This document shows positions 2,609 to 5,413 of a stretch of 8,219 bases of DNA, one piece after another. The notes below the pieces were generated by a model that saw only the letters and a program-made list of their open reading frames with translations, had not been told where the DNA came from and made no database searches. Origin of the DNA: Candidatus Odinarchaeia archaeon. GTDB taxonomy: Archaea > Asgardarchaeota > Odinarchaeia > Odinarchaeales > Odinarchaeaceae. Location of the stretch: contig JAHQXC010000060.1 of the NCBI GenBank assembly GCA_029856525.1, forward strand, positions 1-8,219. Reading direction: 5' to 3'. How positions within the stretch are numbered: position 1 is the stretch's first letter; the number at the start of each line of letters is the position of its first letter. A program made the translations under genes and the position numbers.

Positions 2609-2610
2609 TC

Positions 2611-2624
2611 GGAAGATTTATATA
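2611..2624 (+). promoter_or_regulatory. Candidate BRE/TATA (GGAAGA-TTTATATA) upstream of the GTPase gene
   Basis: A purine-rich run followed by a consensus TATA box in the 88-nt tfs-GTPase gap. A second candidate, TATAAATA, lies at 2644-2651. Confidence 0.5.
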
Positions 2625-2696
2625 AAATAAACCGACTAAAATCTATAAATACCTTAAAAAAAGCTGAAAAGTTTAGAAAAAAGGGATGAGACCGGA

Positions 2697-3194
2697 TTGC
2701 AAATATTAAAAACAAGTGAAGTGATAAAAATAGCGATAACAGGTCTCCCCGGTGTAGGTAAAACAACGATCACCAATCTGCTAACAAATAGAAAAATACC
2801 GGTGAAACATGATCCTACTATAGGAGTTAACTTTTCAAATATAAAACTCAATGAACTTAACAGTATACTATCCGTATTCGATTTTGCAGGTCAGGAGAGA
2901 TTCAGCTTTATAATAGATGATTTAATCAAAGGCTCAAAAATAATTTTATTAGTGACCGATTCAACGCCTCAGAATGTGTTAAACAGCATACCCTTACTTA
3001 ACAGGCTTAAAAGAATCGCACCTGATAGTAAAATAATAGGGATAGCTAATAAACAAGATATAAAAGGAGCTTTAAGCCCTGAAAGAGTCGCAAACATACT
3101 AGGTTTAGAAACATACGGTATGATTGCAATCGACAGCCGAGAGAAAGTTCACATGTACAGAGTGTTAATAAACGCTTTAAAAACAGTAAACTAA
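2697..3194 (+). CDS. Small Ras-superfamily GTPase (Rab/Arf-like motifs, Asgard-type)
   Basis: G1 GLPGVGKT, G2 PTIG, G3 DFAGQ, G4 NKQD, atypical G5 (MIAI). The start is uncertain: TTG 2697 (SD-like GGGATGA at 2683-2689) or the in-frame GTG at 2721. Confidence 0.92.
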   Translation: MQILKTSEVIKIAITGLPGVGKTTITNLLTNRKIPVKHDPTIGVNFSNIKLNELNSILSVFDFAGQERFSFIIDDLIKGSKIILLVTDSTPQNVLNSIPLLNRLKRIAPDSKIIGIANKQDIKGALSPERVANILGLETYGMIAIDSREKVHMYRVLINALKTVN

Positions 3195-3219
3195 AAACCA
3201 GTTATTCAAAACGATTACT

Positions 3220-3525
3220 ATGGAGCCGGCGACTTGGAAAATTATAAAAGATATCAATCCCGGCGATAAAAGAGTGAGAGTGATCGGCAGAATTATAGAA
3301 TCTGATGAAAACTATATAATTATAGACGATGGGACAGGGGTTATATTAGTAGATATAAGCAGTGTTGAAAGAAAAAACCTATTAGAATATGTTCTAGTCA
3401 CTGGGGCGGTTCACTCCACAATCGATAATAAACTTATTATAGAAGCTGAGCTGATAAACAGCTTCAAATATTTGAATTTTGAAATATACCATAAGACATA
3501 TAATCTAGTTAATAAGCAACGTTAA
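3220..3525 (+). CDS. Small single OB-fold protein, RPA14/Rpa3-like (replication protein A small subunit)
   Basis: PA...I.DI...D.RV.VIGRII....Y...DDGTG...V, then V.VTG.V......I.AE.I..F and a C-terminal helix. This closely follows the pattern I recall for Thermococcales RPA14. 101 aa, directly upstream of pcna. Confidence 0.72.
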   Translation: MEPATWKIIKDINPGDKRVRVIGRIIESDENYIIIDDGTGVILVDISSVERKNLLEYVLVTGAVHSTIDNKLIIEAELINSFKYLNFEIYHKTYNLVNKQR

Positions 3526-3526
3526 C

Positions 3527-3532
3527 TTTTTT
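3527..3532 (+). terminator. Oligo-T (T6) terminator-like tract after the RPA14-like gene
   Basis: TTTTTT begins 2 nt after the stop codon. Archaeal intrinsic terminators are oligo-T tracts, but short T runs are common in AT-rich DNA. Confidence 0.35.
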
Positions 3533-3568
3533 AATCCTAAACTATAAAAGTTAAAGGAGTGATCTTTA

Positions 3569-4318
3569 ATGTTCAAAATAAAGTTTGCAGACGCTAAATT
3601 TTGGAGAAACATCTCGGAGGCGCTGTCATCTCTAGTAGATGAGGGTAGTTTCACAGTGAGCCCGACTGGGATAAAAATGAGAGCTATGGATCCATCTCAC
3701 ATTGCAATGGTCGATTTTGAATTACCGAGCGAAGCTTTCCAACAATATGAATGCTCTAAAGAAGTTAAAATCGGTTTAAATCTTGATGAAATGGTTAAAA
3801 TTATGCGAAGAGCAGGCTCAGGAGATGCTTTAGAGCTATCAACCGAGGAAACATTAGACAGGCTTCATATAAAATTTATAGGTAAAGCGGTTAGAAGATT
3901 CAGCCTTTCACTAATAGATATTCAAGCAGAGAATATTCCAACACCTAATATCGACTTCAAATCCACTGTTACAATGACTACAGATACATTAAGACAGGCT
4001 ATTGAAGACGCGGAGATTATAAGCGATCATATAAAACTGTTAATGGAAGGGGAGACCCTAATATTAAAGGCTTCAGGGGACACTGGAGAAGTTGAAATAA
4101 AACTTACAAAAGATAATGATTCAGTTTTATCCGTTAACAGTAGAGAAAATTCTACAGCCACTTATTCACTAGAGTATCTTAACGATATAATGAAAGGCGC
4201 GTCTACATCTAACATAGTTGAGTTAAGTTTCTCGACTAATATGCCTATTAAACTAATGTTCCCGATTGAGAAAGGCGGTATAACATATTATTTAGCGCCA
4301 CGCGTTGAAGCGGAATGA
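3569..4318 (+). CDS. pcna: DNA polymerase sliding clamp PCNA
   Basis: MRAMDPSHIAMVDF, IGLNLDEMVKIMRR, YSLEYL and C-terminal YYLAPRVE motifs, 249 aa. SD GGAGTGA at 3556-3562. Confidence 0.98.
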   Translation: MFKIKFADAKFWRNISEALSSLVDEGSFTVSPTGIKMRAMDPSHIAMVDFELPSEAFQQYECSKEVKIGLNLDEMVKIMRRAGSGDALELSTEETLDRLHIKFIGKAVRRFSLSLIDIQAENIPTPNIDFKSTVTMTTDTLRQAIEDAEIISDHIKLLMEGETLILKASGDTGEVEIKLTKDNDSVLSVNSRENSTATYSLEYLNDIMKGASTSNIVELSFSTNMPIKLMFPIEKGGITYYLAPRVEAE

Positions 4319-4327
4319 GATGAGTTA

Positions 4328-5413
4328 ATGAGTGAAAACCTTAATAAAAGGATAGCCTTCAAATATGCGTGGAGCGTTGATGCAGCGAAGTACGTGAAGA
4401 ACACGGATATTAAATTAGCTGAATTAAAAGAGGATACGCCGGAAGTTGAGTATGTTTTTAGAAGATTCGACGCGCTGATAAGAATACCAGCGGATAAAAT
4501 TCAAAATATAAAAGAAGAGTATTTAGAATCCCCGTACACGCCTTACATACTACCTGTAATGACCCTGGCACTCTCTATAATAGGGGATAACCGGCTTTTA
4601 CATAGATGGGCGGTTATAGAGTCGAAGATAACCCAGATAAATCTACTAGGCGAAGAACCGGATATAATAAGAAAACTACTATACGATAAATTCAACTGGC
4701 AAGCCTGGTACATTGATAAAATAGAGAGAAAAACCCTGTTAGCGAATACCGGGATGAATTATGATTGGAAGCTTAGATTCGAAGACTTCTTAACCGCTAA
4801 CTATTCATTCCACGACGCTTACTGGAAGCTGAATAATCAGATTATTTATGAAGGAAACGTGCTGTTAACAAACCAAATATTCACTCGACTTATAAGCGAA
4901 AGAGTTAAACTAGACTTAGCTTCAAGAAAACTAGTAAAACCGGATTTAAAAGAGTTAAATGAAAGTTTTATAAACGCAGTTGAAAAATTAAAAACAGAGT
5001 GGGATGAATTAAAGAAGGAAGCGGGGTTCCCTGATACTCAAATACAAGGCCCTGTAAGAAGAGAGTCTTTTCCCCCCTGTATCCGAGATCTACTATCCAA
5101 AATGCTTGCAGGTGAAAATATACCGCATCAAGGCAGGTTTACACTCACATCTTTCCTCTTAAACATAGGAATGAATGAGAATGAAATAATAGAATTATTC
5201 AGAGCCTCACCTGACTTCAACGAGAAGCTGACAAGATATCAAATAGAGCATATAAAAGGCAGGGGTTTGAATAAACCACGTTACACACCCCCTTCATGTA
5301 AAACCTTGAAAACCTATGGTTTATGTTTAAACGCGGATGATACTTGCAGTAAAATATCACACCCGTTAAAATACTATAACATAACGAGGAGACTGGTGAA
5401 AAAAAATAAATGA
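4328..5413 (+). CDS. priL: DNA primase large subunit PriL with C-terminal Fe-S domain
   Basis: SFPPCI, IPHQGRFTLTSFL, FNEKLTRYQIEHI and YTPPSCKTLKTYGLC.....C..ISHPLKYY. Four candidate [4Fe-4S] cysteines at C251, C324, C333 and C340. Confidence 0.95.
   Translation: MSENLNKRIAFKYAWSVDAAKYVKNTDIKLAELKEDTPEVEYVFRRFDALIRIPADKIQNIKEEYLESPYTPYILPVMTLALSIIGDNRLLHRWAVIESKITQINLLGEEPDIIRKLLYDKFNWQAWYIDKIERKTLLANTGMNYDWKLRFEDFLTANYSFHDAYWKLNNQIIYEGNVLLTNQIFTRLISERVKLDLASRKLVKPDLKELNESFINAVEKLKTEWDELKKEAGFPDTQIQGPVRRESFPPCIRDLLSKMLAGENIPHQGRFTLTSFLLNIGMNENEIIELFRASPDFNEKLTRYQIEHIKGRGLNKPRYTPPSCKTLKTYGLCLNADDTCSKISHPLKYYNITRRLVKKNK
5395..5399 (+). promoter_or_regulatory. Shine-Dalgarno site (GGTGA) for the proposed ATA start of priS
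   Basis: GGTGA ends 6 nt before ATA 5406. The same 6-nt spacing separates GGAGTGA from the pcna ATG. Confidence 0.6.

Follow-up and report, generated by a model that had tools for sequence, protein, structure and literature searches.

Archaeal replication genes are part of a superoperon that combines unrelated housekeeping genes. Berthon et al. (2008, PMC2643942) described the PPsG cluster together with the L44e-S27e-aIF2alpha-Nop10 cluster, with the genes for TFS and the PACE12/GPN GTPase on the 5' side. The superoperon, the link between tfs and pcna and the presence of a GTPase gene before the PCNA block are already known from that work (PMC2643942), and the ArfL and Rpa3 protein families are known as well.

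Asgard archaea are the closest relatives of eukaryotes, and their small GTPases have mostly been taken as forerunners of membrane-traffic switches. According to one study, these GTPases are generally encoded without operon partners, which leaves little basis for guessing their functions (PMC10933270). ArfL is an Asgard-only group of Ras-superfamily GTPases (Vargova et al., bioRxiv 10.1101/2024.02.28.582541, citing Klinger 2016). Many ArfLs are fusions of 290-650 aa, and one that was tested has a longin domain. In the literature searched, no function was found assigned to ArfL.

Gene Organization of the Odinarchaeum Locus

The window, that is, the whole stretch of DNA analysed here, is an entire contig of 8,219 nt (JAHQXC010000060.1; G000:C110) of Ca. 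Odinarchaeum. Placement in this genus follows from its GTPase, which is 93-94% identical to the orthologues of Odinarchaeota J65_bin.29 and O. yellowstonii (WEU39641.1). The gene order is csl4, rpoL, a Mini-III-like rnc, the endonuclease dU gene, tfs, the GTPase gene, an OB-protein gene (rpa3), pcna, priL, priS, gins, rpl44e, rps27e and aIF2alpha. The archaeal PPsG-LSIN superoperon is recognizable in the run of pcna, priS and gins15 followed by rpl44e, rps27e and aIF2alpha, with tfs on the 5' side; the position of nop10 would fall past the contig end. This is the same superoperon as that of Berthon et al. (2008), and the GTPase gene lies just 5' of the PCNA block, as it does in Sulfolobales. 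The GTPase of the Berthon cluster is of the GPN-loop type, whereas that of Odinarchaeum is a Ras-superfamily ArfL, and Asgard superoperons contain rpa3 and priL in addition.

The genes considered here are all on the plus strand. The tfs gene (transcription factor S; 2276-2608), whose product scores above the TIGR01384 cut-off, is the 5' neighbor of the GTPase gene and is parted from it in several other lineages. The GTPase gene (2697-3194) encodes 165 aa from a TTG start, and rpa3 (3220-3525) encodes 101 aa. They are followed by pcna (3569-4318), priL (4328-5413), priS (5406-6662) and gins15/gins51 (6725-7216). The GTPase and rpa3 genes are 25 nt apart, and the 88 nt between the tfs stop codon (ending at 2608) and the GTPase TTG (2697) form the widest internal gap. 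An earlier note on this DNA had described the same spacing, the same gap with BRE and TATA candidates and a T6 run after the pair, all of which were confirmed. It had also seen no roadblock, longin or GAP/GEF-like gene nearby, and none exists among the open reading frames of the window, either adjacent or fused.

The TTG start of the GTPase gene (2697-2699) is kept in four Odinarchaeum species and in L063. The probable start of priS is a conserved ATA codon at 5406, 6 nt 3' of a GGTGA Shine-Dalgarno (SD) sequence, in a region (5395-5413) that overlaps the end of priL. This codon is ATA in five Odinarchaeaceae sequences and ATG in other Asgard lineages. Gene callers place the start about 30 codons late; the apparent 85-nt gap between priL and priS is probably not real, and a frameshift or fusion of the two genes was dropped in favor of the ATA start. 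The Mini-III-like RNase III gene overlaps the endonuclease dU gene (1227-2259), and rnc is a conserved member of the Asgard superoperon.

Identity of the GTPase

The GTPase scores above the cut-offs of the Pfam Ras, Arf and Roc families, with motifs G1-G4 and the invariant columns intact, and its AlphaFold2 model has a G-domain fold in Foldseek comparisons. G1 spans residues 16-23, followed by T41, G3 (residues 62-66), G4 (residues 118-121) and an ArfL-type G5 region. By motifs and predicted fold, the protein is a Ras-superfamily small GTPase that would bind and hydrolyze GTP. The Gln of G3 is replaced by Asp in three Odinarchaeia homologues. A GPN-loop GTPase of the PACE12 type was rejected, with a PF03029 score of 15 bits against a cut-off of 27; the true GPN GTPases of this genome are two, on contigs C21 and C65.

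The best PDB sequence match is ArfR/AArf (8OUM, 8OUN), which is also among the top fold matches, at an identity of only 26-28%. Table S1 names the orthologue HDO80421.1 'ArfR', at odds with its motifs. Proteins of the ArfR/Arf family have Leu and Asp as the second and third residues of G1 and Gly as the third residue of G3 (PMC11914678). The GTPase differs from them, with GLPGVGKT as G1 and DFAG in G3. ArfR/AArf has an N-terminal amphipathic helix and Asp at G1 position 3, and the Odinarchaeum protein is without both: in its model beta1 begins at residue 8 with nothing helical before it, and the orthologues of family f2 have about 4 residues ahead of beta1. ArfL-type features are present instead, namely no SAK G5, DST after beta4 and YGM.AI, and the G3, post-G3, G4 and G5-region motifs match the tree-annotated ArfL rows of Table S3. 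The shared ArfL motifs, together with the missing helix and the missing Arf-type Asp in G1, place the protein in ArfL rather than ArfR; on these grounds we rejected the ArfR assignment given by the best PDB match and by the Table S1 label.

In the tree, the GTPase falls within a short-ArfL group (99/97 support) with P0062, which matches the ArfL NVM27612.1 by motifs and length. This group is apart from the long ArfL fusions and is split from RasL-like outgroups with a support of 100. The named close protein matches are all from Asgard, bar one whose label is described as misassigned in the ArfR paper itself. On sequence grounds, the protein is a short standalone ArfL and not an Arf or ArfR. 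The genome encodes a dozen or so small GTPases, and no other short ArfL is among them. It has the same motifs as the ArfL group of Vargova et al., and it differs from the many fusions in being short and standalone, and from the ArfLs of the papers examined in lying within the replication superoperon. No membrane anchor or membrane helix was found in the GTPase, and it is probably soluble.

Rpa3 as a Standing Neighbor of PCNA

The best PDB sequence matches of the OB protein are to P. abyssi RPA14 (E about 1e-5). Its AlphaFold model (pLDDT 93.8) has an OB fold and a C-terminal helix, and the best structural match is P. abyssi Rpa3 (TM 0.86, rmsd 1.7 A), followed by Rpa2 and TEN1. Sequence matches and model together identify the protein as Rpa3/RPA14, with the RPA14/Ten1-like OB fold and C-terminal trimerization helix that are also seen in Pyrococcus abyssi Rpa3/RPA14, eukaryotic RPA3 and TEN1 (PMC10122647). 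The other two subunits are encoded elsewhere in the genome, Rpa1 at C13:6563-8638 (DUF2240, OB domains and Rep_fac-A_C) and Rpa2 at C48:505-1284 (OB and a weak RPA_C), and Rpa3 may simply be the third subunit of a heterotrimeric RPA. The description of RPA14 in the earlier note as an ssDNA-binding subunit is imprecise because P. abyssi Rpa3 neither contacted ssDNA nor bound it alone (PMC10122647); archaeal Rpa3 is a structural subunit.

Profile searches found rpa3 in 108 of 161 Asgard genomes, and pcna adjoins rpa3 in 22 of the first 23 loci examined. The order tfs-rpa3-pcna with no GTPase gene in between is common and occurs in many Asgard families. Because pcna adjacency and this GTPase-free order are so widespread, rpa3 is a resident of the superoperon, and the earlier proposal that both genes of the pair were inserted at the tfs-pcna junction does not hold for rpa3. 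The rpa3 gene of Thermococcales is encoded with rpa1 and rpa2, whereas that of Odinarchaeum lies beside pcna and the primase genes. As a standing neighbor of pcna that is often near primase genes, Asgard rpa3 echoes the partnership of RPA/CST with primase.

In family f15, tfs and rpa3 flank an unannotated ORF of about 88 aa (L010:1778-2041). In the Thorarchaeia loci L175-L176 and L195-L197, pcna is followed directly by priS and priL was not detected; at L176, pcna is present twice in tandem.

Conservation of the GTPase-rpa3 Linkage

Families f1, f2, f7 and f19 are represented by 17 GTDB genomes, and in every one of them the GTPase and rpa3 genes are adjacent and co-directional. Kin genomes are not independent, and the relevant count is that of lineages, about five. 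The order GTPase-rpa3-pcna in one direction is found in all sampled genomes of Odinarchaeum (4), of a second Odinarchaeales family (3) and of two Jordarchaeia-labelled families (4 and 6), and further contigs also carry it. Among sequences held out from the first profile, two Ranarchaeia contigs and Hel_GB_B have GTPase-rpa3, and one Helarchaeota contig has PolD DP1-GTPase-rpa3 and no pcna. Another Helarchaeota genome has rpa3-pcna without the GTPase gene. Paralogous GTPase loci served as a control: of 63 such loci, none adjoins tfs, rpa3 or pcna, the reference set having been taken from the linked loci. The association of the GTPase with rpa3 is real and deeply conserved, and its mechanism is unproven. 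It extends well beyond this genome and genus; a restriction to these was among the conditions that the earlier note had named as refuting its proposal. Our literature search, which did not reach many subscription papers, found no report of an ArfL-rpa3 linkage.

The GTPase evolves slowly. Within the genus, its dN is 0.029 and its dS 0.64-0.66 (dN/dS about 0.045), and 43-55% of the synonymous sites of the gene differ among Odinarchaeum species. It is as conserved as PCNA and far more conserved than Rpa3, with a within-genus identity of 94% against 71-77%. The GTPase is under strong purifying selection. A recent neutral insertion in this genome or genus, which the earlier note had considered equally possible, would agree with the frequent absence of the GTPase from tfs-rpa3-pcna in Asgard. 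It is refuted by synteny and selection, given the same position in five lineages and the low dN/dS, and with no membrane anchor in the protein its probability is negligible.

The earlier note had suggested testing whether the GTPases at this locus form one orthologous clade. The superoperon-linked copies do not form a single supported clade in a free tree, and their monophyly is not rejected by the AU test (p 0.375 and 0.531). A family limited to the Odinarchaeia and Jordarchaeia sequences (a bit-score clade above about 230 bits) was overturned by wider sampling. Jordarchaeum-like genomes have, in an unrelated context, a second copy of the linked ArfL that evolves faster (L056:1477-1995, L057:1477-1989). 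A contig with the label Ca. Deferrimicrobium (L028) shares its synteny with Helarchaeota Hel_GB_A (L026) and is probably misbinned.

In other lineages the two genes are separated. In Borrarchaeum (Sifarchaeia), tfs-GTPase is convergent, tail to tail, on rpa3. In 18 Lokiarchaeales genomes, the short ArfL gene is 7.5-12.2 kb from rpa3 on the same contig; in the loci retrieved it has EF-1alpha on one side and endoU-rnc-csl4 on the other, the same locus having been scrambled by inversions. In Thorarchaeia (5 of 5 loci checked) and family f25, the short ArfL gene heads an rpoD-rpl18e-rpl13-rps9-rpoN-rps2 operon. The Thorarchaeia genes (L207:3501-7404, L223-L227) are divergent from that of glycerol-1-phosphate dehydrogenase, and several of their products have an altered G3 motif. 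At E<=1e-53, with 23 candidates scored per genome, no short ArfL was found in many Asgard families that keep rpa3-pcna (f3, f4, f5, f13, f15 and others).

These relocated copies bear on the idea that the GTPase acts on the transcription or translation machinery, through RNA polymerase assembly (Rpo3/Rpo11) or the ribosome, and not on replication. The Thorarchaeia and f25 copies at the head of the rpoD operon and the Lokiarchaeales copies 3' of EF-1alpha and beside endoU-rnc-csl4 are consistent with it, as is the co-directional tfs-GTPase pair of Sifarchaeia. However, the link to tfs is lost and that to rpa3 kept in Jordarchaeia f7, Ranarchaeia and Helarchaeales, and the genome already has its two GPN GTPases. 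We consider this idea very improbable. The tie to replication that the earlier note had proposed is supported by the recurring adjacency to rpa3 and weakened by the Thorarchaeia and Lokiarchaeales copies, whose sites at rpoD-rpl18e and EF-1alpha/endoU imply that the link may be to growth genes generally. A relay of GTP status to replication is unproven.

A Probable Promoter Block and a Shared Element

A 43-nt block on the plus strand (2609-2651), directly after tfs, is identical in four Odinarchaeum species despite the synonymous divergence of the GTPase gene beside it. It contains a BRE-like sequence (2609-2616) and a TATA sequence (2617-2624) and would act as a promoter. A scan for sigma-70 promoters is not applicable to archaea, and tRNA upstream regions gave no usable promoter consensus.

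Within this block, a 20-nt element (2623-2642, plus strand) is identical to a sequence between the hef and PRC-barrel genes (G000:C11:43975-43994) and is invariant at both sites in the four species; it is genus-restricted and was found post hoc, and by the same test some exact 20-mer is shared by 6% of intergenic regions. The hef gene encodes a Hef/FANCM-like helicase-nuclease, and its neighbor is only weakly PRC-barrel. At a third site (G000:C1:10960-10980), an 11-nt core of the element is likewise unchanged in the four species; it coincides with the start codon of a TrmB-like HTH gene (G000:C1:10689-10985, minus strand) that is two genes from orc1/cdc6. The core occurs 3-6 times per genome, against a chance estimate of about 1.5 per genome, and the GTPase, hef and TrmB-like sites are always included. 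Upstream of GTPase genes outside Odinarchaeaceae, the element was not seen. These shared sequences point to a small candidate replication and repair regulon in Odinarchaeum that would comprise the GTPase, hef/PRC-barrel and TrmB-like HTH genes. A palindromic CGG-N19-CCG operator, apparent in G000, was rejected in favor of a one-sided element since the remaining three species do not keep its left arm at hef. Further matches in an ASA-dehydrogenase-like coding sequence and on contig C28 are coding or chance.

A T6 tract (3527-3532, plus strand) after rpa3 resembles a terminator and may function as one. It is one of only four runs of T>=6 on the plus strand, and four relatives have T5 at the same place. 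Conserved signals that may serve pcna follow it, a TATA-like word (3542-3550) and an SD sequence (3556-3562). The region 3527-3562 could be either a terminator plus a pcna promoter or a site of read-through. The upstream breakpoints of several lineages and the T-tract fit a transcription unit that begins at the GTPase gene; given the TATA-like word and SD sequence before pcna, this unit may or may not end after rpa3.

Possible Roles of the GTPase

From the adjacency to rpa3 in five lineages, the GTPase may have a housekeeping role in DNA copying or growth, not at membranes; direct contact with the replisome is unproven. We tentatively favor, at somewhat less than an even chance, a housekeeping GTP switch that acts in growth or the cell cycle and is expressed together with the genes of replication and growth. 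The GTPase would come from an old, low-copy group of short standalone ArfLs, and its ancestral site was likely the tfs|rpa3 junction of the Asgard csl4-rpoL-rnc-endoU-tfs-rpa3-pcna-priL-priS-gins superoperon. It would be a soluble GTP/GDP switch with regulators encoded elsewhere. Its gene would be the first of a transcription unit that includes rpa3 and that either stops at the T-tract, as a bicistron, or reads on into pcna. Within Odinarchaeum, hef and the PRC-barrel gene are probably regulated jointly with it via the shared element, which is possibly bound by the TrmB-like HTH protein encoded near orc1/cdc6. The link to the replisome would be co-expression, not a stoichiometric complex. The position of relocated copies at information-processing operons (rpoD-rpl18e in Thorarchaeia and f25) agrees with this reading, as do the recurring adjacency, the paralogue control, the low dN/dS, the lack of an N-terminal helix and the invariant promoter block with its shared element. 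The broken adjacency in Thorarchaeia and Lokiarchaeales and the convergent arrangement in Sifarchaeia argue against it, as do the families that have rpa3-pcna and no short ArfL found, the lack of a single supported clade, and the frequency of shared 20-mers and narrow range of the element.

The same synteny could be kept by hitchhiking or promoter dependence. The GTPase would then be an important but unrelated signalling protein that is first in its unit and acts, for example, with longin-type partners encoded elsewhere. If rpa3 needs the GTPase promoter, breaks should fall 5' of the GTPase gene and not between the two genes, and breaks at this point are frequent (f2, f7, Ranarchaeia and Helarchaeales). 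The pair is uncoupled where rpa3 is inverted (Sifarchaeia and Lokiarchaeales), and unrelated genes are found at the same junction, such as the CDP-archaeol synthase (CarS) gene that fills tfs|rpa3 in Asgardarchaeum (L012:1791-2492). A sister ArfL group has a longin-like partner, and the superoperon mixes unrelated housekeeping genes in any case (PMC2643942). However, relocated copies are again at information-processing operons, the pair has moved jointly beside PolD DP1 in one Helarchaeota contig, and the promoter element is common to hef. We consider this reading rather unlikely.

A more direct role would be that of a regulator or assembly factor whose GTP form would bind to Rpa3, the RPA trimer, PCNA or primase, so controlling how RPA is assembled or loaded at the fork. 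GPN-loop GTPases aid the assembly of large complexes and offer an analogy. In favor of such a role, rpa3 is the most constant partner in the five lineages, kept even where tfs or pcna is lost, and it is encoded apart from rpa1 and rpa2. The PACE12/GPN GTPase gene 5' of the PCNA-priS-gins cluster of Sulfolobales is a precedent (PMC2643942). However, the evolutionary rates of the GTPase and Rpa3 differ strongly, Rpa3 is kept in many Asgard lineages with no short ArfL detected, and in Thorarchaeia the orthologous genes have no link to rpa3. Direct regulation appears decidedly unlikely. A co-folding run of the two proteins (alignments A3 and A2) scored 0.14 (mark 0.32) and counts neither for nor against such a role. 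The fullest version of the proposal is an Asgard-specific GTPase that is ancestrally embedded in the superoperon, is co-regulated with hef/PRC-barrel by an HTH protein linked to orc1/cdc6, and directly gates RPA, the replisome or the cell cycle. We regard it as unlikely; if true, a small-GTPase 'eukaryotic signature protein' would work on DNA replication and not on membrane traffic. A deeply conserved site in information-processing operons offers a concrete lead to the function of this ArfL subgroup that can be tested, and it narrows the candidate partners to a few.

A Sister ArfL Subgroup

The sister group mentioned above is a separate subgroup of short ArfLs (98/96 support) found in f8, f10, Helarchaeota, Lokiarchaeales and Sifarchaeia (L058:4001-4879, L208:3501-4507, L029:4935-6047). 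One query did not find its partner in the Odinarchaeum genome. The genes of this subgroup are always directly 5' of an unannotated gene of 130-190 aa. Judged by a motif, the encoded partner would have a longin/uDENN-like N-terminus, usually with a winged HTH, and the two proteins possibly form a module in which a GTPase regulates a transcription factor.
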